Part shown: positions 2,694 through 55,055 of the stretch, piece by piece
How positions within the stretch are numbered: the stretch's first letter is position 1
Layout of the letters: the number at the start of each line of letters is the position of its first letter
NCBI GenBank assembly: GCA_002245135.1
Contig: NGBS01000002.1
Span: forward strand, 186,001-250,000
Origin: Proteromonas lacertae
Lineage: Eukaryota
Reading direction: 5' to 3'
Length of the DNA stretch: 64,000 bases
Made by a program: the position numbers and the translations under genes
The notes under the pieces: generated by a model
What the model saw: only the letters and a program-made list of their open reading frames with translations
Database searches by the model: none
Told to the model about the DNA's origin: nothing

Positions 2694-4128
2694 TTAAATA
2701 TTTATTATATTATTCTCTTCTATCTCATTTACTTTTATACTTCTTTCTATCATTTCCATATCACTCATATTTATCAACTCTTCATTTATACTTTTCATCT
2801 TTATACTTATATTCAACAATTCATTCTTTAGATTGATTATATTTTTATTTAATTCTCCTACATCATTCAAATATACTACAAAACAATTATCAAGTGTTAA
2901 ACATAATGTATAACATTCATCTAATTCTTTTAATAAACCACTTTCATCATATTCTATGTTTCTTAATGGTAAATAATTGCAACTATTATATACTTCTTTC
3001 ATAATATATTGAAATTTACTCTAAAATATATAAATATTTATTATACTTTAAAATCATTATAATACTTCATTAGTGATGATAAATCTGTGTTTGTATTATT
3101 AATTATTTCATTATATATTGATATTAATTTATATTTGTTATATGTAATTAATGTTTGATAATATTTCATCTTTCTTCTTTCATTTTCTCGATATACATTA
3201 CAGAATAAATTCTATTCATAATGATTAAAAATATATAATATATATACTTCAATTTTTTCTTTTTCTACTTTTATATTATTATTAAACATACAATTTATAT
3301 AATTCCATTGTATATATTCATTATATAATATATTTATTATCATATCTTTATCTTCATCACTTGTATTATTAATATAACACTCCAATACTTCATCATTTAA
3401 ACAACTTAATTTAAAATCGATTGGTATATCAGAGTTTATATAATTTGACAATTGTTTTGATTTTGGTGTTACTAAGGGACTTTTCCTCTGTGATGGTGAT
3501 AATGATCTAGATGGAGTTCTACTTCTATTTCTTATACTCATCCTTGTACTTGGAGAAGATGATCTAATCTTCGTTGTCTTAGAGAGTGAAGGTTTTTTAT
3601 AATTTGAGGATGGTGTTTGTAATGTATTGGATGGTTTTGTTGATTGGTTTCTTCGAATTGACAGAGATGGAGAAGATGAACGATATAGAGTATTTCCTGG
3701 TTGTTGTTGTTTAGATGAATTTAGTGTAGTTGATTTTGTGACTGATATTTTAGGAGGTAATTTATTTAATGATTGTCTTGACATTGTTGTAGATTTTGAG
3801 CGAAGTGTTAAGTTGGTTGTTGATGATTGTTTAGATGTTGATTCCTTGTTGAACAGGAGTTCTACTACGATTTAAAAGAGTTGAATATGAACTATTAGTA
3901 GAAGGAGTAGAAAATGAGTTTCTAGGTTTGGGAGCAACTGGAGTTTTAGATCTATTAAAAGCCAGTGGTGGCTTTGATTGAATTGTTTTGTTCATTTGCT
4001 TCTAAACATTATAAATAATAAAAATACAGATTGACTTTCCTCTTTTCGTTTCTTCCATTCTTCCAACCTTTTTCTAATCGGATCTATTCAAATTATATAA
4101 AGTGAAGTAATATACCTTCTGATTGCAT
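2694..4128 (-). CDS. QWRF/augmin subunit 8 (HAUS8)-like microtubule-associated protein
   Basis: Spliced MQSEDPIRKRLEEWKK, a long basic Ser/Thr/Pro-rich region, then LYNEYIQWNYIN (compare the LHNRxLQWRF motif) and a coiled coil. One frame break near 3845. Confidence 0.6.
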
Positions 4129-15900: not shown

Positions 15901-18131
15901 AACTGTATCAATTGGCACTCCTATTTTTCCAGTAATTGTAACACCAGTATAATCAATTGGAATTGGATCTACATATTTAACTATTTCAATTTCTACTGTC
16001 GCTGTTAATACACTTGTTCTATCAGTTGAAGTGGCTGTTACAGTATATTTTGTTCTGTAAGATGAATCAACTGTGGGTGTTCCTGAGATTACACCAGTTC
16101 TTGAATCACATCTTAAACCAGCTGGTAATGTTGGATAAATACTGAATGATTGATATATTTTGTTTGACATAAAGATAATTGGTCTATTTGCATCAAGTTG
16201 AATTTGAGACATGTAAATAGCTACTGGAGTTCCATAAGATAAGGATGAAGATGGTAAATAATAATAATAATCAGATGGAATATAATTCTTTTCCATCATA
16301 TTTGGACCTCCTGACCAGAATAACTGTACTTGCTTCAATGAATTTGTATATGATTTTAAATATGTAAACTCAATTGCTCTTGGACCTTCACTTGTTGTTA
16401 ACGAAGCTTGACCTGATCTTGTATTAGCTAAACAATCACCTTCAATGGTTAATTCTGACACATCTCCTGTATATTCTGCTGTCCATGTAACCTTAGCAGA
16501 ATCCATAACATCTGCACCATAAATATAAGTACCTGATCTTGGGAAATTGATATAACCTTCATACACTACTTTTAAGTTTGTTCCATACTTTGCAATTAAA
16601 CCTTCAAATGATTTACTCGATTTTTCTCTATTTATTGTATCTACTACATGCTGAGCTACTAAAGTAGGATTTTCACAGGATGATATACGGCATGAAGAAT
16701 AAGAGCATGAATAATAACGAGCCATTATACCTGGCTTTAAGATTTCTGTTGATAAAGTTACAACTGTAAGATAAATATCAGCTGTTGTTGTTGAAACACC
16801 ATTCTTGGCAGTAATCTTATAACGAGTTGAACTACTTTCTATTGATGGATTACCTGTAATTGCACCTTTATTAAATGATAAGCCAGTTGGTAAAGCTGGT
16901 TCTATATACCATTCAGTTGGACTTCCTTCATAACTTGGTTGGATATTTACACCTGTATGAATTCTAACAATATAATCACTGGATGGATAAGTTAAGAATT
17001 GAACTGGTTGTTGAGGACCAGATATAAATTCACCACCTAACACTTCATAATACATTATACCAGCTGAGAATATCTTCCATTCAACATAAAACTGAGTTGC
17101 ACCAGTATTTTCATAATGTAGAGCAGTAAATGCATGATCGCCCTCAGTCATTTCAAATCTAATAACAACACCAGTTGTAGTACTAATAGTAGCAATTGGA
17201 TGAGTGTAATTATTATCTAAAAATACCCAAGCACATTCATCAACTTTGAATCTAAATGAGTAAGTACCTGTAACTGGAGCATGAATAATACCATCATATC
17301 TGGTGAAATATCTTTCTTGAGGAAAAGCAGCTGGACAAGCTGTTATACCATCATTACATTTATGATTTAATTCGCTGAAATAATAAGTGGTGATTGGATT
17401 CATATTTCCATTTTCAAAATCATATAAGTATGGATCATAAGTTGAAGGACATTTCAATCCACCATCAGAATTATAATAACCATTTGGAGATATTCTAGCC
17501 ATTATACCAGGTGGTAATTTTGAATTATCAACTACAATTACATTCACAGATACTGGTAATGAACCAGCAGTGTTTTTAGCTGTTACAACGATTGTAATAG
17601 CTCTTGTAGTTGTTGTTGGAGTTCCACTAATTGCACCAGTCACTGGATCTAAAGTCATTCCTGCTGGAATGTTGTTTGTTTGTTTTTCAAAGGAAGTAGC
17701 TTGTGGATCACACTTTGGACCTTGTATAATTGTATAAGTGTTGATTGGGATTTGAATTCTGTCAGTAACACCATAAGTACAAGATTGAATTGGAGCAGTT
17801 ACTGACATTGAGATTGTTGCTGTGGATGTATCACCTGTAGGTCCTGTAAAAGTGATGGTAAATGTAGTCTTGGGTAAAGCAGACGTAGGAGAACCTTTAA
17901 TTGAACCATCACTTCCTAAAAACAAGCCAGTGGGTAAAGCTGGATGAGATGCAGCTTTTGTTGGTGTTGGTAAACATGATGGAATGATTTCTACTTCTTG
18001 ATTCACATCGAATGAGAAATCAGTGTTATCATTGTTGTAAGTACACCTTGGTCCTTGTGCATAGCCTAGCAACAGTATAAATAATTAAACTTACAGATAG
18101 ATATCAGTATTAAAAACGCTAAATACCTCAT
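12913..18131 (-). CDS. Type I membrane surface protein with multiple putative-Ig (He_PIG) repeats, PA14 domains, galactose-binding-like domains and Cys-rich modules
   Basis: A 29-nt intron completes signal peptide MRYLAFLILISICYAQ. Repeated LPxGLxxdxxTGaIsGTP, PA14-like segments, CPTDGSWPAT..C..RRC..W modules, one C-terminal TM helix. Confidence 0.88.
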
Positions 18132-30223: not shown

Positions 30224-33200
30224 TTATGGCATTTTACTTCTTTTCCTTCTACCTATTGTTGATGTTTTCCTATTATTTACCAGAGTTGAACTTCTTTTTA
30301 GATGTGGATTTACACTCATATTTGTTGTATTAACGCTTGCCATTGAAATTGATGTTTTACTTCCTTCTGCAACACTTAGTTCTGAAGAATGAGTCAAACT
30401 ATCTGTATCTTCCAGAGCTTCATCGCTAGTAAATCTATATACAAACTTTGGAATGAATTGCAAACCAATAATAAATAAAATCATTAGCTGATATCCTATT
30501 CCTCTAAATAAAATTAAAGAATCAGGAGATGTTTCTATAACAAATTCTAAAGCAAATAAAACAAGTGAGAAGAAGAGTAAAATAATGAATTAAGAAAATA
30601 TTATATCAATAGATTCATTTAAAAAAAGATATATTCTACAATAAATGTTACTAATAACATATAAGAATCTAAAAACTCATTTGCTCTTCTTCTTCCTTGA
30701 ATAGATTGAATTAATCCATAAAATATATTAATTCCTATAAGTACTGCAATAACAATTCTATGGAAATAATAAAATAAATACAAATAATATATACACGAAT
30801 ATTTCATTAGTAGAACATTCTTCATAGTATGAATCTGACAAGAATGTTGTTTCACTATTATCCAATTGCAATGTATATTCTGTATGAGATATTGTTTGAT
30901 ATAATATAGAAACAAATAATGGGAGCAAATAATTTAGAGCAAATAGTTTCACAGCATATAAAACATGAATATGAATCTTACGAACTTCTCTTCTTTTTGA
31001 TTTTCTAATTTTCCTTGCTTTTACTGTGAGTAATGAAGTAACAAGTGAATATGATAAAACAACTAAATTGACTCTTAAATAACATACTAATGAACTATTA
31101 TTCTCTGGAGCATATATTGTTGTTATAACAGAACCACTAGCAATCAACAAAGTTAATATTATAAAGTAATGATAAGGAGTTGAGAAGCATTTTATTACTC
31201 TTTTATTTTTATATTTCATTGTAAATACTAATGCTGCTAAAAGTGCTAAGCAATTAATTGCACAGAATATTAATGCAATATATTGAAGAGCTACTGTTCT
31301 CTTTAAGATTATAGTATCTTTTGTATTGAAATAATCTGATGGAGTACCATCAGGAAATGGAACTGGTTCATAGGTTTTAACTTCACCAATCTTAGGATTA
31401 ACTTGAACAAAGCCAGTAGTGATAATTTCCATTAAAAATGCTGATCTTTTTACATAATTATTCTCATCAACTGTAATAAGGCCAGAAGGTGCTAAGTATT
31501 GTAAACCAGGTAAAGTTAATCGTATATAATCTGTTGAAGGCCAATTATCTTTGTCGTGAGAGTTTGAATCTTTTTCAGATATATAATTCTTAGCAATATT
31601 AACAGCTTCTTTGATTAACTGCATTGCTATATAAGTATTTTCATAGTAAGGAGTTATATAGAATTGAGAATCTAATTTATCTTTTGCATTGTTAATAAAT
31701 GCATAATTTGATGATGATTCAATTTCCTCTTGATATGATATTGGGATATAACTTCCTAGTGAATGTACTGATATATCTGATGATCCTAATAAATAATGAT
31801 CGAAGATAAAATTGACAAAAAAGAATCTTTTCAATCTCAAATTATATTTTATATAATACTTCATACAAGTGATGGAATTTGATAATTTCAATGCAATAAA
31901 TACTATGATTTAAATTATTATATAAAAGAATATACTAATCAAATTATTTATCTTACCATATATTGATTCAAATTTCTTCATTACAGTGTCACATTCTCTT
32001 CCATCATTGATTATTTTTTCACCTAATAATGCTGTGTTTGATATACTTTTTATACCTGTCACGATATTTTGATAATATTCAGCTGTAAAAATGATTAAGG
32101 ATAATCAATTAATAATATAAAAACAATCAAAAAAAGATATTCATTCTCTTTATCAATTAATATGAAATAATTGGTGAAATATTGTTTTGTATAATCTATT
32201 GATACTTGTACCATTTGCGATAATGTTGATCCAACAGTGAATGTATATTTGGAGAAGAAATTTCCATTACTATTACCTACATACATAAATATCATCCTTT
32301 TCTCATTTGTAACTTTACTAACAATATCTCTACATCCACTTGTTATACAACCAACTATTGCTTTGACTGATGGATCATTACATAATTCTATTGTTGTATT
32401 TTCTATCAATTCATTTGGTACTATTTTCACTATTGCATAAACTTCATAACCATTTATTCCTCCTGTATTATCTAATTGATTCACTGTATCGTCAAAACAT
32501 AACCATACATTATATTTTTCTTGATATGGCTCATAATCTTTTTCTACAATCAATGCAATTCGAATTATTTTCTCAATCTTATACACACCATTATGATTTG
32601 TAAAGTCACATGATTTTCCACTATTCTCTTTTATCCATCTTGAAAACGTATAAGGATAAACTAAACCAGATGGTGATGATACTGGTGTTAATACTTTATT
32701 CCTCATTTCAGTTATATATACTCTTCTTGACAAGTAATTGTTTGTTTCTAATTGAATATAACCAGTAGCAACACTATGTTTCTTTCCTGTCATACCTTTT
32801 CTTATTGATAATGGTTCAAAACTTCCACTTTCTCTTACTCCAGTTGCCCATAATTTAACTGCAGTATAGGCTGCTTCAACAATGGCAGTAACAACTACAG
32901 AATTCTTATATTCTTCTTGGAATTTATCATAAAACATTTTTAATTTCTGATTACTTCTTAATGTAGATTTGCCTAATACTGAGAACCAACTTGATATGAA
33001 TCTATCTTCTTCAAAATATTGTTCATTTCCTGTCAATATCAGCTCATCAACTAACATATGATAATAGATATATGTCGGAGGTTTTAAGCCAATTGAATAC
33101 GAGTCTTGTGCCAATTTCAACGAATCGTAAGAATAAACAATATCCAATAGAATTGCACCATTAGGATAGTCTACTAATATTTTCTGCAATGATTCTATAG

Positions 33201-36200
33201 AACTATAAAGATAAGCATCATATCGAACTTGAATTTCTTTTAATAATTCAGCAATAATATCTTTAGCAACAATACTAAATGATGAATTTGAATATACTAT
33301 TGCATATGCATTCGTTTGTTCCATTGAAAAAGTTGCTTTTACTGCCGATATTAATTGATTAAACACAGTTTGTGTTGTAATTCCAAAACTACTACAACTT
33401 TCACCTATTGCAATTCCTGGATAGAATAACAATTTCTTTGCTTTTGAGAAATAAGGTTCCATCACTTTATACTCATCATCCCAACTTCCACCAAATACAG
33501 TATTTAATCCTGTTAAAGCAGCTGTTTCTTGACTTAAAGCAGGCAATTTTTCTAAATCTGATGCTGTATCAATAACGTCCAATTCTATTTTATTTCCAGA
33601 AAGACCTCCTTCGCTGTTTATTTCTTTTATTGCCAATTGAATTGCACTTAATATTCCTCTGCCTCTTTCTTCATCTTCTCCTGTTAATGAAGTAACCACA
33701 GCAACTTTATGACTTGGATATTTATATTTTGCTCCATATTTTGAATTAGTTAAATCACATATATAAACTCCACTATTGATTAATTCTTTCCAAACTGATG
33801 GCTCACCTAAATCATCTGTTGATACTACTGATAATCTACCATCTGAATTACCTGAATATGATCCAATATATGTTACTCTTTTTGCAACATTGTTACTTGC
33901 TATTGTGAAAATTCCTGATGGTGACTTATACTCTGTATTGAAATATTCCAAATCTAATTTGCTAATTGGTATATCTTTATGATCATTAACTACTTTTTGC
34001 CAGAATAATACTGCAGTATAAAATGCCTCATGATAGCTATTTATAGGTATTCCTGTTGGTAAACCCACTTCCATTGCTTCTTTAAATGCTTTGTTTTCTT
34101 TTGTATCAATTGTATTAAAGTATTTATTTATTGAAAAGAATGGTTCAACTCCATATATTGCTGCATTTTCTGATGTTGAATATGAATAGAAATGATAATC
34201 TGAATCTACTGGTCTTAACTCTTTTAATGCAGCAGATATAAGAACATGCAACCTTACTGTACCAAAGAAGAATATAGAAGCATTACTTGTTAATCGTGCA
34301 ATCATATTCTTTATTGCAGACACTACGTTATCTGTTGTTTCATCTAATGTTATTGAGTATAATACATCTCCATATAAATAATTTATATATCTTTCAGAAT
34401 AAGTTGTAAATTTCAAACTTGTTGCATCAGATGTCCCAATTATTCCAAAAGATCTACGACCTAAATTCAAAGCTCTTTTAATAATAAATTCAACAGCTGT
34501 AGCATCAACACCAATATGGATGATATTCCTTTCACATGATTCTCCTCCATATACTCCAATGTGGAATATTTTAACTTCCTTTTCAATAGCTAATGCATTT
34601 ATCATATCTAAACAAATTGAACTTGCTGTTGTAAATATTGCACTGTAGTTTCCTTTTGTTAATAGATTATTCAATTGAGTATGACAATTTGTCGAATCTG
34701 ACTCATCATCAACTGTAGTGATTTCTACTCTATTTCCTCTGATAGCTTCATTATTATTTATCTCTTGTATTACTAAACTAAATATATCATTTATTCCTTT
34801 ATAATCTAAACTATAAGCACCTGACTCAGATGTTAAAAGAATGACTTTAATAACATCCACCATAACAGTTGCATCACTATTATCTCCTAGAACTAAAGAT
34901 GTATCACATAATTTTCCAAAATTTCCTGGTAAATGCCAATTAAATGATTCTGGCTCAACCTCTAAATACTTTCTAACAATTACAGCATTTGAACCTTCAT
35001 ACTTATATACAAAAATATCTCTATAAAGATAATTACTTTTAGCAAATCTTACATATTTTTCCATAGTTAATGTTTTATTGAATAACAGAGGCTTTATTAT
35101 ATTCATATTCAACGATCCTGCCTGTAACACACACTCATATACCTTCTCAAATAGTAAAACAGTAGATACACTTTCTTCAATAATATCTTCCATTCCTGTA
35201 TATTTATGAAGCAGATTATGAACATTTTTTATAATACTATTCTCAGAATCTGGTGCATCAATACCACCAATAAAATAGTAAGGTATTGTCAAGTCTGGTA
35301 ATTCTTCTCTAATTGTTATTGGATTGACTCTAACTTGAATTATATCATATATATCTCTATTTGGTTGTATAATCTCAATATTCTCCAACAAACTAACCAA
35401 TGGTATAACGTTTAAAAAACTAACAATTAAACCTCCTCTACCTAATTTAGATAAAATTGTTCTTACAGTATTTAATGATATTCTGTCATAATCACCTATA
35501 CTAAGTGTATATGCCATTGTAAATCTAGAATCCATTGTCATCATAAATACACCTCCAAAATATCCCCATGTATCCATCTTTGCATTACTGTATAATAATA
35601 CAACATTAAATCTATTCTCTAAACTCATCATAAATGTCATTGTTGAATCTATAATTTGGTTTGGAATTGGACCTGAAAATAAGATATTTGGATGGCATAA
35701 TTCAGCTTCAAATTTCTTTGGATATAATAACAACTTCCTTTCCTCTGTTAATAATATTTTCTGAATTGTATTTAAACAGAAATGTGTAGTACAACCTATA
35801 TACAATAAATTATTCTCATATTTCATTGAATCTTTAAGTCTTTGATCTAATGTTAAATCATTATCATTATAAAACAGAAATACAATTGACAATGGAACAC
35901 CAAATATACCACCTTTTTCATTTACATCTTCAATAGCAGCTACACAAGAAGATAGAATATAAATGAAATAAGGTTCATCTTTTAATGATAATATTACTGT
36001 TACATTCATTGCCAATTTTGGCAATTTATCTCCAATTCCATTCTTATTGTTTCCTGACCAATCACATGTATATATATCATATGACATATATCTTGTTGAA
36101 TATGGATCAGGTGAATAATCTGATGTACTATCAAATTTTACATCAAATTTATAACCCTCATCTGAGTTTACAACTTCAGCAATATATATTGGTATTGATA

Positions 36201-39200
36201 AATGGTGATTTTTAGTGGATGAAACCATACCAAATGAAGTATCAAAACTAATATCATTTAAAGTTGCTATGACATTTTCAACAGCAATGGATTTCTTTGC
36301 TTCTATTGCTTGTCTCCACAATAATACAGCTGATAATGCATAAAACTGATTTACAGATCTTGAAGTTATATAAGGATAATAAGCATCATAATACCTATTA
36401 ATTACAAATATTATTGAACTAGTATATTCAATTTTATCTGTCAGCAATATATGTCCTTCAAAATAAACAGCATATTCAGTATTAACAACCATAGCATCAA
36501 TCCCTAATATATAGAATGTATATTGTGGAGCTTTCAATCCAGACAAATATGCTAATTTATAAAATTCATATCTATTTGGACCATCTATTAAGGTGATTAC
36601 TATTCCATCACCTAATAAATGAAGTAATGTACTTTCTACAATTCCTGTCATATCTGTTGTATCAAATGGGATTTTCAATTTCTGATAGATTGATACATCC
36701 AAATCATTCAAATCAGCTTCAATTATCTTTGCTACTGTACTATAATAGTAATTATTTGTATAAACAATGATAATTCTCCTTTTTGTCCTTATATGATCTT
36801 CTTGAATATAATATCTTATGTATTTCTAGATAATAATAATATAATACTCATAATTAAAATACTCTTGCTGTAAATGGAACTCCAACATATGAAATACATT
36901 CTTCACATTCTAAACCTTCATAATCATGAGCATAAAATAATAGTATTTTGTTTTTTCTTAAGTATGGTATTGCTGCTTTTCTCATCTCAGAAATATAAAA
37001 TAAAGGAAATTATAATAAGAGACGAAGAAAAAAAAAGATATTTACTTAATCCGAACATAAAACTAACACCATTTTCTACTAATATAGAAGTAGCATTACC
37101 TATTCTAGATGGATCTGACTGAATATCAATCGTAATCGGGTGAATATATAATCCTCTAATACCGTTATATTCTATATTACATAAATCAATGGCCATTAAA
37201 TATGTTGATAATAAACTAATATCTTGTAAAGAATAAGAACCAGATAGAGAAACTAATAATCCAACCTTAATAAGAGATCTTTCATATCTCTCAGAAAATG
37301 ATTCTTTCCAATTACATGTATATATTCTACTTTCTCTATAGGTTCTTTTCCATATTTGAGAATCAAATGTGGCTTTTATTGTATATGTAACAAAACGAAG
37401 TAGACCATCACTATCTTTTTTATACATACTAATAGGTCTTGATAAAACGTTGGTTCTATCCATTTTCAAATAACCAAATGGACTTTCTTCATCAATACTA
37501 TATACATTTTCAAATATATAGGATTGCTTAACAGAATCATCTGTTTTTAACAAAACTGATAACATATATAAAGATAATAGAACATTTATTTCATCTCCTC
37601 TAATTACATAACTCTGTGTCAAAATACTATTAATCTGCTCTTGAATATTTGATTCAGTAACTAATTGAGATGTAACAACGTATTGATTTACAGTATAACT
37701 TTTATCTATCAATCCAAAAGTATAATCATCAAAACATATTACAGTATAAGGTTTTGATAAATTAAATGCACTTAATCTGTCAATTATATACTGCTTAAAC
37801 AATTTAAAGAATGTTTTTAATGATTCACCACTTAATGTTGTAACTATAAAAGTATTTGATGATCCATAGTAAGTAATGTTCTCAAGGAATGAAATTACAT
37901 CATCTTTTAGATTTGCTTCATTTACTTTCATCAATCCAGATACTTCAAAATTAATTACATCAAATGAACTTATTATAATGTCATTATATACTTCCATTGA
38001 AGGATTTGAATCATAAATAAAAGCTATTTGTTTTCCAAATGCATATAACATGTAATTGATTGAATATGATATATATTGATCTGGTGATGGAGTAATCAAA
38101 TATCTAATAGAAATATGATGATAAATATTATATTATAAATACGAGTTCTGTTTACATATTCCTCCTGTATTTACTCCTGTATAAAATAGTACAGTTTTCT
38201 TCAATACTTCATCCTCTGCAAATGTATTTATAGTATTTGTATCACATCCACCAATAAAAATCAATATGCCAAAATCTTCTATTCCTTTTTTTATTTTTGT
38301 TAGCTTAACATTATTTGTTGGACAATCGTACAAATGAGGAACCTATTATATTTACATAATATGATATTTAACATACAACAAATCTTTCATTGAAATGATA
38401 ATTTCCTCTAAGTTCATTCAAATACCAATTGATTAGTATCACATTCTGTAAAGCCTTTGTAGATGTTATATCATCAAATATAAATCCGAAATGAAGAGGA
38501 ATATTTCTACCATCACTACTACCACCGTTCTGTTGATAAAAATCACATACTCTATCATAATTATCAGTAGTCTATATATATATAAAATGAATTATTTATA
38601 CAGTCCAATCATATCCATTTGAATATAATGGAGATGGATATGAAACATATAATTCTTCATTATAATTACCATTATTGTCATCGCTAATTAATCTAGTTAG
38701 ATAAAAACTTTTAGAGAAATATCTTCCATCTGTTACTTTCATATTATTACCTTCTGGAGTATCAATATTCATATCTTTGAAATGTAATAATACAGTTGAA
38801 GCTTTAAGCATTTTCTTTGATTGAATAGCATCTCTAGTTTTGATAAGAATTTCATAAAATGATATGAAATCTTCTTCTAATAGTAATTCTGTATCTCCAA
38901 GATAAGTCTCTATATTCTTAATCATATTCATATTTGCTTCATTTTCTAAATCTTTATAATACGAAGTCAATATCAAATGATCACTGAAATTTTGAAATAA
39001 TTCATCACCTCTATTGTATAATAAATTATTAACATATCTTCTGGATAAGGTAAAATGTATATTCTCAGCATTTCCTGTTCTACAACTAACATTATTAACA
39101 AATTTCACTGTTGTATCTCCCATTATGAAGAAATTCTTCTGCTTCGTTGTACAATCCCTAAAATCATTATCAAATGATTCAGCTCCTGATTCTATCTCTA

Positions 39201-42200
39201 TAAATTCACATTTTTTAGTAGTATAACTATTAGCAAGAAATTTCTTTGCAGATACAATCATATGTTGAGAATATGAATCATTTGTATAATATATAACACA
39301 TTTATCTGATTCTAATATTAGGTAGTTCAGTGCTGGATATAAACTATTATCAATAGTTCTAGAATAGTATATCAATTAAGAAATCAATAATTGTTATATA
39401 TAACATTAAAAAAAGATATAACTATAGTGTTTGCTTCACACACATCTCCATCGAATGGATAGAATAGAAATAATATTTTATCATACACTGTTATTATATC
39501 ATTAAGTATCTTTCTATTTTCTCTTCTATTTAATAATATATATAATGTAAAAAATTATACGATATAACTCCTGTAAATGCAAAAACAAGTTCATCTTTTG
39601 CTAACGCATTCAATTCTTTTTTGATTTCAGAAAGTGACTTTTCATATTTGGGGAAGATTGGCTTTACTATTCCATTTAATAAACCACCTTGAATATTTAA
39701 AAAATCACATGCTGCAATTGCTACTTCAGCCAAATTAGAAAATATCTTTTGATATTCATGTTTATAAGGTAGTAATACAACTAGTTTATAGACATTGTAC
39801 GATGAATGTATGTCATTATTAAACACTATAATAATTATATTAGAAGATAATTATATATATATATATACCATAATGAGAATAATCACAAATCTGATTTGTA
39901 TTTTCAATCATCACATAAGTTCTAAATGATGCATAAGTTTTAGAACTTAACGAAAACAACCTCACATAGTTCTTTTTTGTTCCCTATATAATAATTAGAT
40001 AAAATGATATATACCATTACTAAATGAAATCCATTAATTGCATAACCTGACTCAGTTATACCAAATGGACCATTAGTAGTATTAATATAAGTTCCAACTA
40101 TTTGCCTATTTAATTAATATATATTTAACTGTAATAATACTTTTGAATATATTCATATTTTGTTGATAAAGCATTCAACATCCACTATTATAGATAATAA
40201 TAATATTTTATAAATACTTCTTTAAAGAGATATATTGCATTATATGCTGTAATCTGATCATTACTAATTGCACCTTCATTATCAGTATAATATTTCTTTA
40301 TATTCTCTTTTAATTCATTAAGATTTCCTTGATTTTCATCAACATAGTATGAAAAAGTGTAGAATTTATATGGATATTCATAACCTGTATCTAAAAACAA
40401 ATTTTGATTAATATCGGGGATTATAATTCGATACATTGAATTCATATCTTGAATATTAATAGCTTTAACAACCAAATCTAAATACTCTTCTTCTAAACAC
40501 AATATTCCATATCCTACAGCTTCTATATCTATATCATTGCTCTCTTCATCAGAAGCTAAAATAGAATCAAGTTCTTTTCCATCTAATTTAATAATACAAA
40601 TAAATAAATAATATATACAAGGATATAACGTAGATCTAAACACTGATATAGCTGTCATTGCTTCAGCTCTTGAACATTCAATCATTTTATATTCCACTAT
40701 ATTTGTAATACCATTCTCTATTAATTTCTCCTTCCATTGTTTCGCTGTAATTGTTCCATATTCTAATGTACTTGATATTATGACAATTGGATTTGTATTT
40801 TCTCTCAAAAGAGTTGTAAATGCTTTTGATATTTTAGCAGTAGTTGAAATTGCTGTAGTAACCAATTTTTCTTTACATTCAGCACTAGATGCGTATTTCA
40901 AAGCTATTACTTGAACATTTGTTAGCTTTTGAATTGATAACTGATTTAATAATTCATTTCTATCTTCCATTCTTAACGTGGTTAAAATATAATTAAATTC
41001 GCCTGTATCATAGAATCTTTTCAACTATATTATAAGTAAAATAAAGTGAAATTATATACTGTTTTAACTGTTTGAGTAATATTCATATTACCATCCATCA
41101 ACATTGGCAATATTCTAACTCCAAAATTATTAAACTACAATATATTATAATGAATTAATATATACATTAATTAATTCTCTCATAGCTTGAATTACTGCAT
41201 CAACAATATACATATCTTTACCTGAATAAGGCCCAGTAATATACACTATTAGAGCAATATCATATTGTTGAATATCTTTCACTTTTGGACTTTGGAATGA
41301 ACAAGTAATCTTTCTTGGCCTTCCATAATAGAAATTGTAAGTAAATAATTCATCTCTTTGAATAGTAACATCAGTTATTAAATTTCCACTTCCATCATGA
41401 TTAGTTGATAAATATACATCAGAAGTAAGCGTATTTATATGCGATACAAATATTGATACTTTATCATTGCTGCTTGATATATTTACTTCAATAGTGTTAT
41501 CATACAAAACATAAAACAAATTTGGTACAAAATCACTCAATGTCTTTTTATAACCATATAAAAATACTTCAAACATTATATGCAACTTATAAAAGACTAA
41601 ATCTTCTAAATCAGGGGTGGGTTTATACAAAACATTATAATAACTAAGATATTCAGCATAATATGTTACTATTATATCACTTGTATAATAATTATAATTA
41701 TATAATTCCATAACTTCTATATTTAAAGGTATTTCATAATAATCATTTACATCTATAAGGTCTTGTAGAATTGATTCGGTTGTGGTTGGATCTGCTAATA
41801 TAACAAGGTTAATCTCTTCGTCATATTCATTAAAAGTGTTGATTAAAATATCACCAGTTCTTTGAGGTATTGCATTTTCACCAGGTTGAAGAGGAGGTAA
41901 TTCAACTAAAGTTCCACCAATTATAGGAAGGAATTCTTTTAAATAATCTACATATACAGAATATGGATGATTTTCTTGATATAGTACAGCTATGAATTTT
42001 GATTCTTTAACCATATACATTGTATCTATGTAAAAAATTAATCATAAAGGGTGTATACATCTTTCAGCATATCTTCTAAACGATCCATAATACATGATAT
42101 TACTATGACAAGCATCAAATAACTGCGGTGTTGTAGTCCACAGTATCATTTTTGATTCTATCAGTTTCTCATTGATTTTGGTGAAATTATCGAAGATTAT

Positions 42201-42485
42201 ATACGTAAATATATGCGTAACTTTATTATTCTTAAAATACTGTAGAGCTTGATCAAAGTTAACCCCATTCTTCTGACAAGTTGTATTAAATGCTACTAAC
42301 GAGTTTTCCGACAACTTAACGTCTATATTACCGAGAAAGTTCTTTATATCTACATCTGGATTAGGTGCTCCTGTATTATCAATCTCGTTCAAAAATCCTA
42401 TATTTGTCGTAGCAATAACAACTACATATAAAATTTCGATACAAAACAAAACTTTGTCAAACCTAAAACTATATCTATTAACCAT
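30224..42485 (-). CDS. Giant class C GPCR-like receptor with about nine tandem UrtA/AmiC-type periplasmic-binding modules (~3,850 aa)
   Basis: All ORF fragments join in frame via about 19 introns. Modules repeat the pattern V..SLSG..AI.EIN..GG..G, FYP..GE.C..NI, AAY.AV.LW and a linker CD. The C-terminus has 7 hydrophobic helices with KNKRVIK, C.LR..VKARKI, an ECL2 Cys, NEFLDS and FIPKF. Confidence 0.8.
30577..30632 (-). other. U12-type AT-AC intron (56 nt)
   Basis: ATATCTTTTTTT..TTTTCTTAAT..TTTTAC. Removal restores TM6 (FIVEFFFSLVLFALEF). An AT-AT acceptor 6 nt earlier is also in frame. Confidence 0.8.
32085..32140 (-). other. U12-type AT-AC intron (56 nt)
   Basis: ATATCTTTTTTT..TATCCTTAAT-CATTTTTAC. 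Removal gives DKENE-AEYYQNIV in frame. Confidence 0.88.
36993..37041 (-). other. U12-type intron with AT-AT termini (49 nt)
   Basis: ATATCTTTTT..TTTCCTTTAT..TTATAT. Removal gives FGLSNSEMRKAAIP, colinear with UrtA-type FGCWTSASRKAVLP. The nearby GT-AG alternatives are out of frame. Confidence 0.75.
39367..39419 (-). other. U12-type AT-AC intron (53 nt)
   Basis: ATATCTTTTTTT..TTTCTTAAT-TGATATAC. Removal gives CEANTIV-YSRTID in frame; I found no GT-AG solution. Confidence 0.85.
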
Positions 42486-47385: not shown

Positions 47386-48027
47386 TTATGGATATTCCAA
47401 TAATGCTGCTTTTCTTTCATCTTCATTCGTTATACTTCTTACTACACGACAAGGATTTCCTACTGCAACACAATCACTTGGAATATCTTTGCCAACTACA
47501 CTTCCACTACCAATTATTACTCTATCACCAACAGTAACACCTGGAGTAAATGTAACACTTCCACCAATTACACAATCCTCACCAATATTTATAGGCATAC
47601 CATATTCCCAACCATCTGCTCGTAATTTATAATCCATTGGATGATTTACATCATAAATACTAGTTCTTGGACCAAATGTGGTTCTATCACCTACTGTAAC
47701 TGGACATATATCCATTACGATTGAATCGGCATTAAAGTATACACCTTCACCGAAATGACAACGAAAACCATACTCAGTACGAATTGGTGGTTCTAAGTAA
47801 AAATTTGTCTTTGATGCAGGAAATATTTGATGTAGCAAATCCATTCGATATTCTTCTTCCTCATAATTAGCTCCATTATATCTCTTTACAAGCATTCTTA
47901 CATCAACAAATTCTTTGTGTATCTCAGGATCTACTGGACAAGAAGGGTTGTATAAATCTCCTGCTTCTAGTCTTTCTCTCTGTGTTCTTTTATCATTTGG
48001 ATCAACAGTTTTCTCTTTTGATGGCAT
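47386..48027 (-). CDS. Maltose/galactoside O-acetyltransferase (hexapeptide repeat)
   Basis: LEPPIRTEYG, left-handed beta-helix repeats, GSVVGKDIP..AVGNPC; intronless. Confidence 0.92.
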   Translation of the reverse strand: MPSKEKTVDPNDKRTQRERLEAGDLYNPSCPVDPEIHKEFVDVRMLVKRYNGANYEEEEYRMDLLHQIFPASKTNFYLEPPIRTEYGFRCHFGEGVYFNADSIVMDICPVTVGDRTTFGPRTSIYDVNHPMDYKLRADGWEYGMPINIGEDCVIGGSVTFTPGVTVGDRVIIGSGSVVGKDIPSDCVAVGNPCRVVRSITNEDERKAALLEYP

Positions 48028-48166
48028 ATTTTCGGAAGAATAAAGATCTTATTATTGTGTTTAGTTTTTGAAATATTAGATTGAAATATGTTTTTCTAAT
48101 TAAGAAGAATCTGTCTTTTTTTTAAGTATAAATACTTGGCTCGTGAATTGTGTCTCAATATTAAAA

Positions 48167-49441
48167 ATGCAATTAACAGCTAATAAAACAATATTTCTTT
48201 CAAAATTTGTTGGAAGTTTTGTTGGACTGTTTCTTGAGGGTATGCTAGATGTGGCAAATGGAGTTATATTACCTTTAATTAAGAAATATCATGGTTTTAA
48301 CTACAAATTTTATAGTCTCATGCTTACACTATCTGGAATATTTGGAATCACATTTTCATACATCACAGCTTTTGTTATTAAGAAGTTTGGCTACAGATAT
48401 TCCTATTTCTGTGCGTACATGTGTTATATTCTTGGATACCTTGGTTTTTATTATGTGGAAGCACCTGCTTTAATTGTAGTGAGTTATATTATTATTATAA
48501 TTGGTCAAAATTTTATTGATCTTTCTGCTAATTCTTTGGGTAGTGCAATATATATAAAATATGTAGCTATTATGTTTTCATTGTCTAATTGCATTTATGG
48601 AGTTGGTTCATTAGTAGGTCCTCCATTTATTCAATTATTAGAGAATACTCAAAAATCATGGTGTTATAAGGAGTATAGTTTAATGTTACTTATCCCAGTT
48701 GGTATATCATTTATTATATCAATCTTTACTCCCTATGATAAAGATACAGGATATGAAAGAAAGCCAGAAAATGCAAAACCATCTGAAGATGTAAAAACAG
48801 TAGAAAAGAGACTAACTTCTAAAGAAGTATTCTTTTCATCAAGAGCAATGTTAATGACAATTATTTTAGGACTGTTCACACTTTGTGAGAAATCAACAAC
48901 TGCATGGGGCTATTTATATGCAACTGAATATCTTCATCAAGATTCTACAATTGGTAATAATTATTTGACATACTTTTTTATGATTTTCACTATATCAAGA
49001 TTTGTCAATGGATTTATAACCGAGAAGATTGGTTTTTTCCCTATGTTGGAAATTATTGGAACAATGGTTTGTATTTTGTCATTAATAGGATTTAGTTTTA
49101 CAGAAGGAACAACAGGATTATATTTTTTAGCTAGTTGTGGCTATTTTGTTTCTACATTTTGGCCTTGTATGTTAGGTGTAATAATCGAAGTATATAAAGG
49201 CAATGCAGAAACAGCAACAGGATGTATATTACCAGGTCAAGGAGTAATGATAATGTTGGTTAATTCTGTTCTTGGAATAATCAATGATTCATTTGGAAAT
49301 CAATATGCTTATATGATTTCGATGGCTTTTTGTGCTGTTGCTTTGTCATTGACAATCTTCTTACATTGTATGGTATATTTAGAAAGAAAAGAAGAACAAA
49401 AGAAGAACAAAAATAACTTATTAACAAATGAAAATATATAA
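48167..49441 (+). CDS. MFS permease (FucP/MFSD4-like), intronless
   Basis: About 12 hydrophobic segments, YGVGSLVGP, E..TTAW, SRFVNG. Confidence 0.8.
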   Translation: MQLTANKTIFLSKFVGSFVGLFLEGMLDVANGVILPLIKKYHGFNYKFYSLMLTLSGIFGITFSYITAFVIKKFGYRYSYFCAYMCYILGYLGFYYVEAPALIVVSYIIIIIGQNFIDLSANSLGSAIYIKYVAIMFSLSNCIYGVGSLVGPPFIQLLENTQKSWCYKEYSLMLLIPVGISFIISIFTPYDKDTGYERKPENAKPSEDVKTVEKRLTSKEVFFSSRAMLMTIILGLFTLCEKSTTAWGYLYATEYLHQDSTIGNNYLTYFFMIFTISRFVNGFITEKIGFFPMLEIIGTMVCILSLIGFSFTEGTTGLYFLASCGYFVSTFWPCMLGVIIEVYKGNAETATGCILPGQGVMIMLVNSVLGIINDSFGNQYAYMISMAFCAVALSLTIFLHCMVYLERKEEQKKNKNNLLTNENI

Positions 49442-49526
49442 TAAAATTAATAAATTATAATATATTTATTTTATTGTTCAATTTCAAAAAAGAAATCATA
49501 AAATAGATTTAATTATTCTTATAAAG

Positions 49527-50138
49527 TTAACTACTAGCATATTCTGTAGCAGCTGCTTGTCTTTCTTCTGCACTTTTTATTTGTTTAATAACATGACAAG
49601 GGTTTCCAACAGCTACACAGTCACTTGGAATATCTTTACATACTACACTTCCACTTCCTATCACTGTTCTATCACCTACAGTAACACCAGCTACAAATAC
49701 TGTTGAACCACCTACAAAACAGTCTTCACCAACTGTTATTGGCTTACCTAACTCTAAACCACTGTTTCTTTCATTATGATCAATTGGGTGAGTTGCTGCA
49801 TAAAAACTAGCTCTTGGACCAAACCAACTTCTCGCACCTATTCTTATTGGACATATATCAAGGATAATAGCGTTATAATTCATATATGATCCTTCTCCAA
49901 AGTAACAATTATCACCATAATCAACATGAAGTGGTGGTTCGATATAAAATGGTTTTGGACAATTCGGGAATATTTCATGAAGTAATTTAATTCTATATTC
50001 TTCTTCACCTGGGTAAGTCTCATTAAACTTCTTAACTATTTTCCTGACTTCAATAAAACGTTTTCTAATCTCTGGATCAGTTGGGTCATAAAGCTCTCCT
50101 GCAATCATTTTTTCTCTTTCTGTTTTGGTTTCACTCAT
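49527..50138 (-). CDS. Maltose O-acetyltransferase
   Basis: MSETKTEREKMIAGELY, IEPPLHVDYG, ATHPID..RNSGLELGKPI. True start is ATG 50138 by comparison with the paralog. Confidence 0.93.
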   Translation of the reverse strand: MSETKTEREKMIAGELYDPTDPEIRKRFIEVRKIVKKFNETYPGEEEYRIKLLHEIFPNCPKPFYIEPPLHVDYGDNCYFGEGSYMNYNAIILDICPIRIGARSWFGPRASFYAATHPIDHNERNSGLELGKPITVGEDCFVGGSTVFVAGVTVGDRTVIGSGSVVCKDIPSDCVAVGNPCHVIKQIKSAEERQAAATEYASS

Positions 50139-50424
50139 TTTTGGATTTATATTTCTAAAATGACAAACTATTGGCTTGAGTAATTGTGTTTCAATTCTTA
50201 ACAAAAAAAAAGAAACACAAATAAGTGTTATTTATCTGCTACACTTAACTAGATGATATATTACTATTTAAAATCAACCATTTATTTTTTTCTGTTGATA
50301 TTTTAAGTGTTTATGACTTTATTAATACAAAAAATATAATGAAGTAAATGTTATGTCTTTTCAAATACAAAACATATTCTCTTATTATAATGAATACTAC
50401 TTTAAAAAGTGAATATTATTTTCA

Positions 50425-51036
50425 TTAACTACTAGCATATTGTTTAACAGCAGCTTGTTTATCGTCTGGATTATTTAAGTGTTTAATAACATGACAAGGG
50501 TTTCCAACAGCTACACAGTCACTTGGAATATCTTTACATACTACACTTCCACTTCCTATCACTGTTCTATCACCAACAGTAACACCAGCTACAAATACTG
50601 TTGAACCACCTACAAAACAGTCTTCACCAACTGTTATTGGCTTACCTAACTCTAAACCACTGTTTCTTTCATTATGATCAATTGGGTGAGTTGCTGCATA
50701 AAAACTAGCTCTTGGACCAAATAAAGTTCTTGCTCCTATTCTTATTGGGCAGACATCAAGTATTACAGCATCAAAATTCATGTATACACCTTCACCAAAG
50801 TAACAGTTCCAACCATAATCAACATGAAGTGGTGGTTCGATATAAAATGGTTTTGGACAATTAGGAAATATTTCATGAAGCAATTTATTCCTGTATTCTT
50901 CTTCATCAGGGTCAGTTGCGTTAAACTTCTTAACTATTTTCCTGACTGCAACATACTCCTTTCTTAGCGATGGCTCCATTGCATTATAAAGCTCTCCTGC
51001 AATCATCTTCTCTTTTTCTGTTTTGGTTTCACTCAT
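50425..51036 (-). CDS. Maltose O-acetyltransferase (tandem paralog)
   Basis: Same motifs; 3' half nearly identical in DNA to the 49527 copy. Confidence 0.93.
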   Translation of the reverse strand: MSETKTEKEKMIAGELYNAMEPSLRKEYVAVRKIVKKFNATDPDEEEYRNKLLHEIFPNCPKPFYIEPPLHVDYGWNCYFGEGVYMNFDAVILDVCPIRIGARTLFGPRASFYAATHPIDHNERNSGLELGKPITVGEDCFVGGSTVFVAGVTVGDRTVIGSGSVVCKDIPSDCVAVGNPCHVIKHLNNPDDKQAAVKQYASS

Positions 51037-51251
51037 TTTTGGATTATTAATTTTCTAAAATGACAAACTATTGGCTTGAATAATTGTGTTTTTGACTTTA
51101 CATTTTTAGATTTAACAAATTGGAACACAAATACAATTAAACATCATGCATTATTATAATACATTATTATTCATTTTTAATTATAACATCTCACGTAACT
51201 AAATAAATAATTTAAAATACACATAGAAAACACGTATGTATGTGTAGAACA

Positions 51252-54200
51252 CTATATATAAATAGTTTTTCTCTTGTTCATATTCACCACTGTTGGAGCT
51301 TTTCTTAATTTCTTTCTATTACTGTTATTATTCTTGATATTAATATTATTATTGTTTTCATCAGCATATGGAATATAGTATTTTATATCATATCTATTCT
51401 TTTTCCTTGAACTTAACCTATTTGCCTTTCCACATAAATATACAATAAATATAATCGAAACTACTGTTAATATGGAGAAAAAAGTAAACAAAAATGTTGA
51501 TAATTGTTTGTAAATGGAATCATAAAAGGATGGATTAAATTCAATTGTGTTTGTGAGGATATAATCATCAGTAGAACCTATATATTTATATGGAAATGAA
51601 ATATCATATAATATTGATAAAATTATCTCTTTAATAACATAATAATCTTTTTCTTTACATGTAAATTGAAATGACACTTTAGTTAAAATACTATTGTTAT
51701 TCTGTTCAGTTCCTATAAATGATGTTTCATTCAATAAATAATGACTGATGTCCAATAAATCAAAGAAATTAATTCTTCCTTTATATTTATCAGAAAAGAA
51801 ATATGAATCAATTGATGTTACAAATGAAACTACTACTACAGTTTCAAATGCATAATATGGCTCATGTTTGACTAAAAAACACTTTTCAGTAAAAGATGTT
51901 TCATCCCATTCTGGTATTCCTGTATAATTCACTTCATTTATTATACACATTTCAGATTTATAACCAAAATATCCATTCTCACATTGACGATAGGCTATTT
52001 CATCAACTAAAGTGGAATAAAAATATTCATTCTCATAACAAGAATGTGCTAATATTTCCAAGCAAACTTCTGTATCAATACACAGTACTTCATTACATCC
52101 TATTACTGTATAACAATTCAAATCCATTATTTCAGCTACTCTTCCATCTATTATACCATTATTTAAATTAAATGTTAAATTATGTGGAAGTGTCTTTGAA
52201 ATTGTCCAGTTTTTGATTGTGTTGTAATAAAGTGGGAAATTTCTTGGAGCATCAATTCCATATTCATAGATATAATACTCATAATTATATCTCAACGTAA
52301 ACGGTGGGTTTTTTATATTTATTGTCTTTTCTATATGTGGATTATAAAGATTTGGATCTATTTGAAATTCTGTTACATTTAATATATTTTTGAAAGATAA
52401 TTTTACATTAAAAGGATAATAAATATCATCATCTCCAACTACTATATACGGAAGTTCTTTTATATCAAATATAAACGTAGAATTTCCATCATCTATACAA
52501 TAATCAATTGAATTTGAACTATCATATATCATCTCATAGAAATACTGTTTATATTCATTTGAACTGTCCAATATTGTTGTACTTAATATGATATCATTAT
52601 AAAGATTAGATATTTCAATATTTAATGTTATTCCATGTCTGCATTCATCAATAACAAATGATACATTCTCTTTAATTTCACCCATTAAATTACTAGCTGT
52701 TACTGTGAAATTATTATAATCAAGTTGATATTTGGGAATTCCTAATAATTCACATTTGTTACCAAAATACATTCCAATTGGTAAAGATGGTGTTATATTA
52801 CAATGTTGAATAAAACCATAATTATAATCAATTTTATCTACTGATACATTACTATATGTTTCAAATATAAAGAATGAGGGTTTATTTGAATCTGTTCTAT
52901 TTAGATATAGTAATAAATAAGGTTCTGAAATCGTATGTAATTGTAAATGTAAATTAAAAGTGATATTATTATTATTATTATCACTATGTGAAATAGTAAA
53001 TTCAATGAAATGGTTATTTATAAGTTCTGTAACATTTTGATTAATTGGTATAACTTTTCCATATATAATTCCACAATCAGAATTAAAATTCAATCCTATT
53101 GGCAATTCTTGATCTATAGAATAATTACCATTATAACGCCTATTTGGCTTTAACACAATACTCTGATTGTATAACAAAGTTAAATACTCATATTCATATA
53201 GTAACAAATCTTTGTAATTGGCTTTTATAAAATAACTATCACAATCAATATATCCATTAAAAATACATTTTATTTTTTCCAATTGATTAATATGAGATAA
53301 AGTTATTACTATTTTAACATAATAATACTTTACTGAATTATCTAAATGTATTGAAAAATCTGTTGTTGAATGATTGGCTACATATGAATGTGATGGATTA
53401 ATATAAAATGAAAATGATTCAAATTCTCCATATAACCTTAATGAATATATAAAATATTCATTTATTAATAATGTATAATACTCTATCACTATTGGTGTAT
53501 CTATATATATCGGATTATCTATACTTAATACATTAGTACTATTCTTTATCAACTCTTTATTAAAGCTCTTTACAATTATATTATCATCATTAAAATCATA
53601 ATAACACCAATATAATGAATGATCTTTCTTATAAATTATCTTTGTACTGCTTAAGTGGGATTGTTTCTTTTAATTGATATATGATTGTTATATTAGTTGT
53701 TGATATAATATTATTATTGTCTAATCCACACACTTCAATCACATAATTCATTTTTTCATTCTCAACATTGTTGAATATCAATACACCTTCAATTACACCA
53801 TTATCTTTATTAAAACTCAAACCGTTTGGTAATTCTGGAAATATCTTAAAACACTTTATATATCCTAATCCTAGGATTATTGGTTGAATATTAATATATG
53901 TATTGTTCAGCAACATAACATGGTTATTATTTGGATATTTAATCATAATAGATAATAAATTAGTGGAAATAAATGTATCGTTTAATAATTGATAATTGCT
54001 ATCATCATTATTTTCATCATCTTCTTCTATTCTGTAATATAACTTTAACAATTCATGGTCATTTGTATTTCCAACATAATCAATATGAATGTAAACATTT
54101 CCTTTTGGTAAAAGTATTGATTTTTCCATACTATTATAAGTACATCCTTCATATTCCATAAATGCACAATCCAATGTGTTGATATACATCCTTGCTGAGT

Positions 54201-55055
54201 TAATTGACACTAATTTGAATGTTATTAGAGCTGTTTCTTCCAATATCATGTTCATATCATATGTTGATATATATGATATATCATTAATAACACCTTTATC
54301 TTCTGGTACAATGTTTATTTCACTAATTATGTCTTTATTATAAATTGGATGTGATAAAAGTGAACACTTTGGAAAGGAACATCTATTATCAGTACTAAAT
54401 GACTCATTAATGTAATTGACTAATATACCGTTTGGAAAACTAGACATTAAAGATTTATCTTCAATTATTATAGTAAAACTACTGCTATAATCTATTTTTT
54501 CGTTTGAGCAAAATACATTCACATCAATTAATGCTGATTCTGTAAAATATCCTGTAATTACTCCTGTATAACTGTCAATCTTTAGGTTATTATCATAAAC
54601 ATTTGCGATCTGGTAATTAGAACAGTCTGAATCTGTAATAGGTGATAAGAAAAATGTGATATGTGTAGTTGTATACACATTCTTAGTTGAAGTGTAAGTA
54701 AATAAAGTTGTATTCTTAAAAACTATTCAAGTGGAAAAATAAAAAATATACCTTGAATGATAATATTCTCTTTTAGGATATTTTTCTTCGTGAAACCAAA
54801 CACCGTTACATTTGCTAAACAAGCCTGTTGAGGTCGTCCAAAAATATATCCAGTTTTGGGATTTAGGTAAATTCCAATCGGTAGTCCAACAGCATCATAC
54901 TTAATTATCTCTTTACCCAAAGATGGGACATAACCACTTATTTCATCGTTTATAATATATGTATATGTAAAGGACTCGTTGTATATTTGTTGATATTCTT
55001 TTGGTTGAGATATTCGAATAAATAGAAGATAAAACAACAAAAATACTACGGTCAT
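51252..55055 (-). CDS. Type I membrane protein with putative-Ig repeats and a PA14-like domain
   Basis: Signal peptide, LPxGLxFNxxxGxIxG repeats, C-terminal TM. One GT-AG intron near 54723-54751 and a frame break at ~53644-53680. Confidence 0.78.

Follow-up and report, generated by a model that had tools for sequence, protein, structure and literature searches.

How can a gene keep a single open reading frame (ORF) across four introns that do not begin with GT? The question is raised by a gene on the minus strand of a 64,000-nucleotide stretch of DNA from Proteromonas lacertae (GenBank assembly GCA_002245135.1, contig NGBS01000002.1, positions 186,001 to 250,000 of the forward strand), hereafter the window. 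The gene is predicted to encode nine tandem periplasmic-binding-protein modules followed by a C-terminal seven-transmembrane (7TM) domain, and four of its 19 introns lie outside the GT-AG class. Comparison of the gene with its relatives suggests that these four bear U12-type signals and are spliceosomal introns whose predicted removal falls to the minor (U11/U12-dependent) spliceosome, that they have been inherited, and that intron type has switched at old positions. We place the probability of this reading, taken as a whole, at about 70%.

Four introns with U12-type signals

The gene and the four introns in question are as follows; these coordinates, like all others below, are those of the window.

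30224..42485, minus strand: coding span of the gene in a script-built model, with its ATG at 42485 and its stop codon at 30224; 20 exons, 19 introns, 3834 amino acids
39367..39419, minus strand: putative U12-type intron #4; 53 nucleotides, AT-AC, phase 0, module 3; donor ATATCTTTTTTT; branch-like TTCTTAAT ending 8 nucleotides before the 3' end
36993..37041, minus strand: putative U12-type intron #3; 49 nucleotides, AT-AT, phase 2, module 5; donor ATATCTTTTTTT; branch-like TCCTTTAT ending 7 nucleotides before the 3' end
32085..32140, minus strand: putative U12-type intron #2; 56 nucleotides, AT-AC, phase 2, module 9; donor ATATCTTTTTTT; branch-like TCCTTAAT ending 9 nucleotides before the 3' end
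30577..30632, minus strand: putative U12-type intron #1; 56 nucleotides, AT-AC, phase 1, sixth transmembrane segment (TM6); donor ATATCTTTTTTT; branch-like TTCTTAAT ending 12 nucleotides before the 3' end

Removal of all 19 introns (four U12-type and 15 GT-AG) leaves a single open frame of 3834 codons in which the sole stop is terminal. The exact 12-mer ATATCTTTTTTT occurs four times in the window, each time at one of these donors, where shuffled sequence gave a mean of 0.29 and none of 100 shuffles reached four. A composite pattern, defined as the donor followed by TYCTTWAT, then 5-14 nucleotides and then AY, picked out these four loci and no others (seven overlapping matches; shuffle mean 0.14, with 0 of 100 shuffles reaching seven). 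The TYCTTWAT branch-like motif itself is present in four of the four U12-type introns, whereas all 15 GT-AG introns of this gene lack it.

The terminal dinucleotides, three AT-AC and one AT-AT, fall within the range of U12-type introns (AT-AC or GT-AG, more rarely AT-AN), AT-AT being a rare but accepted U12-type subtype. The U12 consensus, as given by Bartschat and Samuelsson (2010, PMC2846911), consists of the donor /RTATCCTTT, in which a T is allowed in place of either C but not both, and the branch site UCCUUAACU, with no pyrimidine tract. All four introns agree with a /RTATCCTT(T) donor once one C at +5/+6 may be replaced by T, and all four carry, near the 3' end, a UCCUUAACU-like branch site that no polypyrimidine tract separates from that end. 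Likewise, a UCCUUAAC-like branch site lies near the 3' end of each, and the candidate branch adenosine is situated 8-14 nucleotides from the last intron base. We consider it likely, on these signals, that the four introns are of U12 type. An original prediction, made from the letters of the window without database searches, had described four non-GT-AG elements with minor-spliceosome signals at these places. Their positions, lengths of 49-56 nucleotides, motifs, module assignments and frames all proved correct for the minus strand, as did the U12-type cis signals, with a donor that fits /RTATCCTT after a single C-to-T change and a branch-like site near the 3' end.

The signals lend themselves to a mechanism in which U11 would pair with ATATCTTT. 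TYCTTWAT would be the pairing site of U12, bulging the branch adenosine at its distance of 8-14 nucleotides from the 3' end, and the 3' splice site, which has no polypyrimidine tract before it, would be chosen by distance. The introns of module 5 and TM6, at least, would occupy old positions at which the type has likely been switched in place.

Inspection of all [AG]TATC[CT]T sites in the window brought to light no further U12 introns, and no U12-type intron with GT-AG ends was found there. Other donor sites accompanied by a branch-like motif were rejected, those at 7078, 5603 and 46831 lying opposite coding frames on the other strand, and that at 40626 concealing an in-frame GT-AG intron of 36 nucleotides.

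Read on the plus strand, at 30577, 32085 and 39367, the reverse complements of the three AT-AC introns run GT...AAAAAAAG, and a scan restricted to GT-AG takes them as antisense introns that are 4 nucleotides shorter. Through this antisense GT...AG appearance, gene models might be placed on the wrong strand. As the true reading, the antisense introns were rejected, since removal of the shorter span would break the frame.

Intron borders

To place the borders, pieces of 140 residues of the spliced model around each junction were compared by BLASTP with 41 homologues. The TM6 junction is spanned by nine continuous homologues (P0004, P0006, P0012, P0014, P0015, P0021, P0022, P0031 and P0039), and the model shares with P0004 and P0006 a spacing of 37 residues from NEF to RG. 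The module-5 junction is covered in 14 of the 14 rows listed, and there only the removal of 49 nucleotides yields FGLS^NSEMRK (the caret marking the junction), matching FGLS^NSVMRK of P0015 and FGLS^DSQMRK of P0016; the alternatives (46, 52 or 61 nucleotides, or a GT-AG pair) add, drop or replace residues in the region of NSEMRK. In module 9, KEN^EAEYY aligns with EEN^ENSYF of P0004 without a gap at the junction, and some more distant rows have a gap of one or two residues beside it. The module-3 junction is spanned in four of four rows (three from P0039 and one from P0015), and the distance from Cys to PAL is 17 residues both in the model and in P0039. Furthermore, other 3' ends for the U12-type introns would alter residue spacing. 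Because homologues align gaplessly across all four junctions, the borders, including the AT-AT one, appear to be fixed, and protein alignment thus points to three AT-AC introns and one AT-AT intron.

Donors apparently retained in relatives

Proteins called as plain ORFs on the contigs of relatives halt just after reading into an intron, and their tails disclose the donor. Scans of metagenome contigs (with a 383-residue exon and with a three-row alignment) and of genome contigs returned no DNA from any relative, and intron types in the relatives were therefore deduced from these peptide tails. At the site of intron #3, the orthologue fragments P0106, P0107 and P0108 (71-73% identity) end in FGLSKYLF.. 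or KYLS.., which corresponds to AA|ATATCT. At that of intron #2, the orthologue P0109 (74% identity) ends in KENEYLFF, corresponding to GA|ATATCTT, and at that of intron #1 all 15 members of the cluster of P0002, a homologue of 46% identity, end in FLVEYIFF.., corresponding to T|ATAT.TT. Beyond the donor the residues vary between relatives, as intron interiors should. At three sites, then, donor and codon phase appear to be common to this gene and its relatives, and for that reason we read the introns as inherited rather than freshly inserted. Inheritance also appears likelier than new insertion because these places are probably occupied by ordinary introns in sister copies.

Shared positions and a probable switch of intron type

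Two ordinary GT-AG introns of the gene bear on this point:

39526..39560, minus strand: GT-AG intron of module 3; 35 nucleotides, phase 2, column 114 of the module alignment
38104..38142, minus strand: GT-AG intron of module 4; 39 nucleotides, phase 2

In an alignment of the nine modules, intron #3 of module 5 and the GT-AG intron 39560..39526 of module 3 both fall at column 114 in phase 2, and the spacing from Gly to Cys is 33 residues in modules 3 and 5 alike. By permutation, an exact fall of one or more of the three U12 introns in modules on the GT-AG site of another module has P ~0.03, and the whole set of coincidences, one exact and four near, has P ~0.009. Between intron #4 of module 3 and the GT-AG intron of module 4 the distance is 7 nucleotides by MAFFT columns, or 1 nucleotide when the alignment is anchored on the downstream Y-x-x-T-x5-Y. 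For intron #2 the alignment shows no counterpart in the other modules.

A similar picture emerges at TM6, where the ORF breaks exactly 13 residues after an xEF motif in six family members. The break reads Y-I-F, as a U12-like donor would, in this gene, P0002 and P0023, and C-I or S-I, the residues that N|GTAT would encode, in P0018, P0034 and P0033. A quick tree of the 7TM region groups the GTAT-like rows in one clade (Shimodaira-Hasegawa-like approximate likelihood ratio test, SH-aLRT, 96) and places this gene and P0002 in another (100). Peptide tails thus suggest that the TM6 site holds introns of either type across the family.

Since the module-5 site carries a GT-AG intron in a sister module, and the TM6 site apparently does so in paralogues, intron type has likely switched at a fixed position. 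These comparisons are most simply read as showing one ancient site that holds different intron types in different branches, and a switch in either direction would be compatible with the unrooted tree. The documented direction of such a switch is from U12 to U2. More tentatively, and with a good deal of doubt, one may suppose that GT-AG introns were converted to U12-type introns, or that U12-type introns were created at old sites, with the stereotyped donor ATATCTTTTTTT; the minor introns of this protist lineage would then not be relics, and it would follow that a single young gene family carries four.

The original prediction had taken the different positions of the four introns to imply de novo gain of minor introns. 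That part is not supported by the comparison: relatives appear to share donor and phase at three sites, the position in module 5, and apparently that in TM6, also holds GT-AG introns, and the alignment of intron positions among modules and relatives, with column 114 common to modules 3 and 5, speaks against it. The further suggestion of rate-limiting control through the splicing of these introns is wholly conjectural.

Many of the relatives' ORFs (P0003, P0007, P0008, P0009, P0013, P0026 and others) stop at model positions of about 3616-3621, 3649 and 3676. These common stops in the 7TM region suggest further family-wide intron positions, which this gene either lacks or shares.

Weighing the alternatives

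Several points count against inherited U12-type introns that changed type in place. Intron types in relatives are deduced from read-through tails and not from DNA, and an isoleucine in such a tail leaves the C of ATATC undefined. Where a homologue continues across a site, its sequence may come from a spliced transcript and is then silent on the presence of an intron. The exact coincidence between modules is a single event (P ~0.03), and the near-coincidence of modules 3 and 4 depends on an ambiguous alignment. In addition to being unrooted, the 7TM tree has seven weak branches among its 17 inner ones and places P0023 on a long branch. The AT-AT border of intron #3 is drawn from protein alignment, frame-keeping GT/GC-AG pairs are available at every junction, and the window gave no small nuclear RNA (snRNA) match, either at the gathering threshold or at E values up to 1.

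A rather unlikely alternative, although the least unlikely of those considered, is that the lineage of this gene acquired all four U12-type introns anew after module duplication, whether by insertion of a stereotyped element or by local mutation, the GT-AG coincidences then being chance or the reuse of favoured insertion sites. Each of the introns is present in just one of the nine modules, the module positions all differ, and all four share an identical 12-nucleotide donor; intron #2, as noted, is without a counterpart, and the gene family is lineage-restricted. Moreover, Physarum has been proposed to have gained U12 introns with rtatctt donors en masse (bioRxiv 10.1101/2020.10.12.336362). 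Nevertheless, relatives down to 46% (probably 22%) identity read into the same donor and phase, so a gain could not be recent, and the position and phase of intron #3 are exactly those of a GT-AG intron of module 3. The interiors of the four introns are not significantly alike (mean score 0.025 as against -0.052 for shuffled sequence, with 6% of shuffles scoring as high), and terminal inverted repeats, target duplications or flanking repeats common to all four copies examined were not found. Origin from a mobile element or introner thus found no support. Inverted ends (ATATC...GATAT) occur in intron #4 only; a reading of the four as eliminated sequences of the ciliate kind (internal eliminated sequences) was set aside, splice signals being present and the elements apparently being kept in the relatives' assemblies.

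Two further accounts retain the junctions and change the machinery or the borders. Removal of the AT-AC and AT-AT introns by the major spliceosome, in an organism without a minor one, would accord with the missing snRNA match, with a donor that has T and not C at +6, and with the thought that tiny introns could accompany unusual splice-site recognition. We hold it to be improbable: the major-type introns of the gene are all GTAT/GTAA...TAG and free of TYCTTWAT, both U12 hallmarks stand at canonical spacing in all four introns, and ATATCT is an accepted variant of the U12 donor (PMC2846911). It is very improbable indeed that GT-AG introns truly serve the junctions, or that a pseudogene or misassembly with frame breaks has produced an artefactual AT-AC reading. 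The original prediction went too far in finding no GT-AG solution here, since frame-keeping pairs remove 43 nucleotides (GTCTCT..GATGAG) at intron #3, 83 at #4, at least 149 at #2 and at least 152 at #1; residues conserved in homologues nevertheless weigh against these pairs. Their donors (GTCTCT, GTGTGA) are unlike the GTAT/GTAA of the gene, three of the lengths, from 83 to at least 152 nucleotides, compare with a median of 35, and their use would delete or replace conserved residues (the module Cys, SEMR or TM6). Orthologues, moreover, retain the same structure, and the frame of 3834 codons is wholly open after removal of the introns as modelled.

The host gene and its ordinary introns

Two further features describe the gene in which the introns lie:

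30400..31291 (ends approximate), minus strand: seven-transmembrane (7tm_3) region, from Pfam and homologue C-termini; interrupted by the GT-AG intron 30794..30758 and by putative U12-type intron #1
32141..36825, minus strand: intron-free exon of 4685 nucleotides, running from the remainder of module 5 through modules 6-8 into the beginning of module 9; open frame

The model product has a signal-peptide-like start, followed by nine periplasmic-binding-protein modules of 354-405 residues, delimited by a recurring C[DN]x motif, and by a C-terminal 7tm_3 domain. Peripla_BP_5/6 is matched repeatedly by Pfam (E=3.9e-84 for Peripla_BP_5 on the large exon), and the modules score higher with these families than with ANF_receptor. 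The 7tm_3 match reaches E=1.6e-12 and 48.1 bits against a cut-off of 33.5, over residues 207-381 of the exon translation. For module 8 the closest solved structures are bacterial urea-binding proteins (7s6e_A, E=4e-18), in keeping with the bacterial-type domain that had been proposed for this gene at the outset. The family is narrow, with 41 homologues at E<=0.001 among 1.84 billion representative proteins, and the 10 homologue clusters that were looked up all derive solely from Logan assemblies. The gene is thus lineage-restricted, and the introns occupy TM6 and modules 3, 5 and 9 of it, as first described.

The architecture recalls that of class C G-protein-coupled receptors, in which 7tm_3 is preceded by a type-1 periplasmic-binding-protein (Venus-flytrap) ectodomain. 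It differs from them in its nine tandem modules, in its preference for Peripla_BP_5/6 over ANF_receptor and in its closeness to bacterial urea-binding proteins.

The remaining 15 of the 19 introns are of the form GTAT/GTAA...TAG, are 30-54 nucleotides long (median 35) and have a guanine-plus-cytosine (GC) content of 8-24%. Intron density is uneven, with fifteen introns in the 5' 5.7 kb (36826-42485) and none in the following 4.7 kb, modules 6-8 being intron-free. Within the 4685-nucleotide exon, no GTAT..TAG candidate with GC <=16% was found on the coding strand, and one match, at 34112, lies on the plus strand. An intron of 36 nucleotides (40583-40618, minus strand; GTAT...TAG) is in frame and stop-free, and so is hidden inside an ORF. 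Before it stands ATATCCTT, which matches a U12-like donor perfectly but is exonic in the model and goes unused there.

The window and its neighbouring genes

The window is eukaryotic and uses the standard code; its GC content is 23-35% and its ORFs extend up to 1917 codons. Tiny GTAT...TAG introns are abundant, a low-GC pattern giving 88 matches on both strands, false positives included. No genes for transfer RNA, ribosomal RNA or snRNA were found in the 64 kb.

Elsewhere on the minus strand, 47389-51054 holds three adjacent genes for hexapeptide transferases resembling maltose O-acetyltransferase (Mac and Hexapep domains), a bacterial-type family; they may represent the tandem expansion of a transferred gene. 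Very large proteins with He_PIG repeats are encoded at 12916-18084 and 51255-54726, also on the minus strand; one of the proteins additionally shows PA14 and, below threshold, a GLEYA-like match. By their domains these repeat proteins look like cell-surface adhesins. The best named relative of a sugar transporter in the window is from Aduncisulcus paluster (29% identical), and a calpain domain in the window matched only generic eukaryote clusters in the Atlas search.

Known systems and significance

Minor introns normally number about one per gene, and are old and located in conserved genes; the published genomes of Blastocystis, in which such introns have been surveyed, are far more GC-rich than the 23-35% of this window. 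In Blastocystis sp. ST1, 346 minor introns in 319 genes were reported, together with all of the snRNAs and seven specific proteins (Gentekaki et al. 2017, PMC5608401), and a later survey gave 253 introns, 77% of them AT-AC, with a median of 39 bp (Larue and Roy 2023, PMC10639083). The mean length of these introns is just under 42 bp, their phase is not biased away from phase 0 and their turnover between close relatives is rapid (PMC5608401; PMC10639083). The present gene resembles what those papers describe in having short, mostly AT-AC minor-type introns beside tiny major introns in a protist, and departs from it in density, with four in one gene (4 of 19 introns) where Blastocystis has about one per gene.

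For Physarum polycephalum, Larue, Elias and Roy (bioRxiv 10.1101/2020.10.12.336362) describe a U12 donor of rtatctt, U12-type introns in many non-ancient genes and tolerance of ends other than AC. A donor T at +6, a non-ancient host gene and a non-AC end are all shared with our introns. Conversely, the branch TTTGA and co-changed U12 snRNA described there have no parallel in the near-canonical branch motif found here, and the TA-flanked inverted repeats that suggested a transposon in Physarum are lacking from these four introns. A third comparison is offered by Trichinella spiralis and Caenorhabditis elegans, between which U12-to-U2 conversion is recorded at fixed or shifted sites, one of them shifted by three codons (PMC2846911). 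There too, one position is U12-type in one sequence and U2-type in its homologue, and the shift resembles the pair formed by modules 3 and 4; the nematode cases are orthologues of two species compared by their DNA, whereas ours are modules of one gene and paralogues typed by peptide tails. A full-text literature search for 'ATATCTT' with 'U12' gave nothing relevant among the matches listed.

Short, AT-AC-rich minor introns are thus already known, having been published for Blastocystis. What is unusual here is their density (4 of 19), a lineage-restricted host built of modules, an extended donor that does not vary and the fact that homologous positions appear to hold introns of both types. In practical terms, gene callers limited to GT-AG would break the gene at four places. 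If the reading is confirmed, an AT-rich, tiny-intron eukaryote would retain the minor spliceosome and, if DNA from the relatives bears it out, the family gives several independent, datable changes of intron type within one gene. Were the doubtful possibility of conversion towards U12, or of creation at old sites, to prove true, sister modules and paralogues would provide a natural system in which to watch a supposedly near-impossible U2-to-U12 switch, or the ongoing birth of minor introns.

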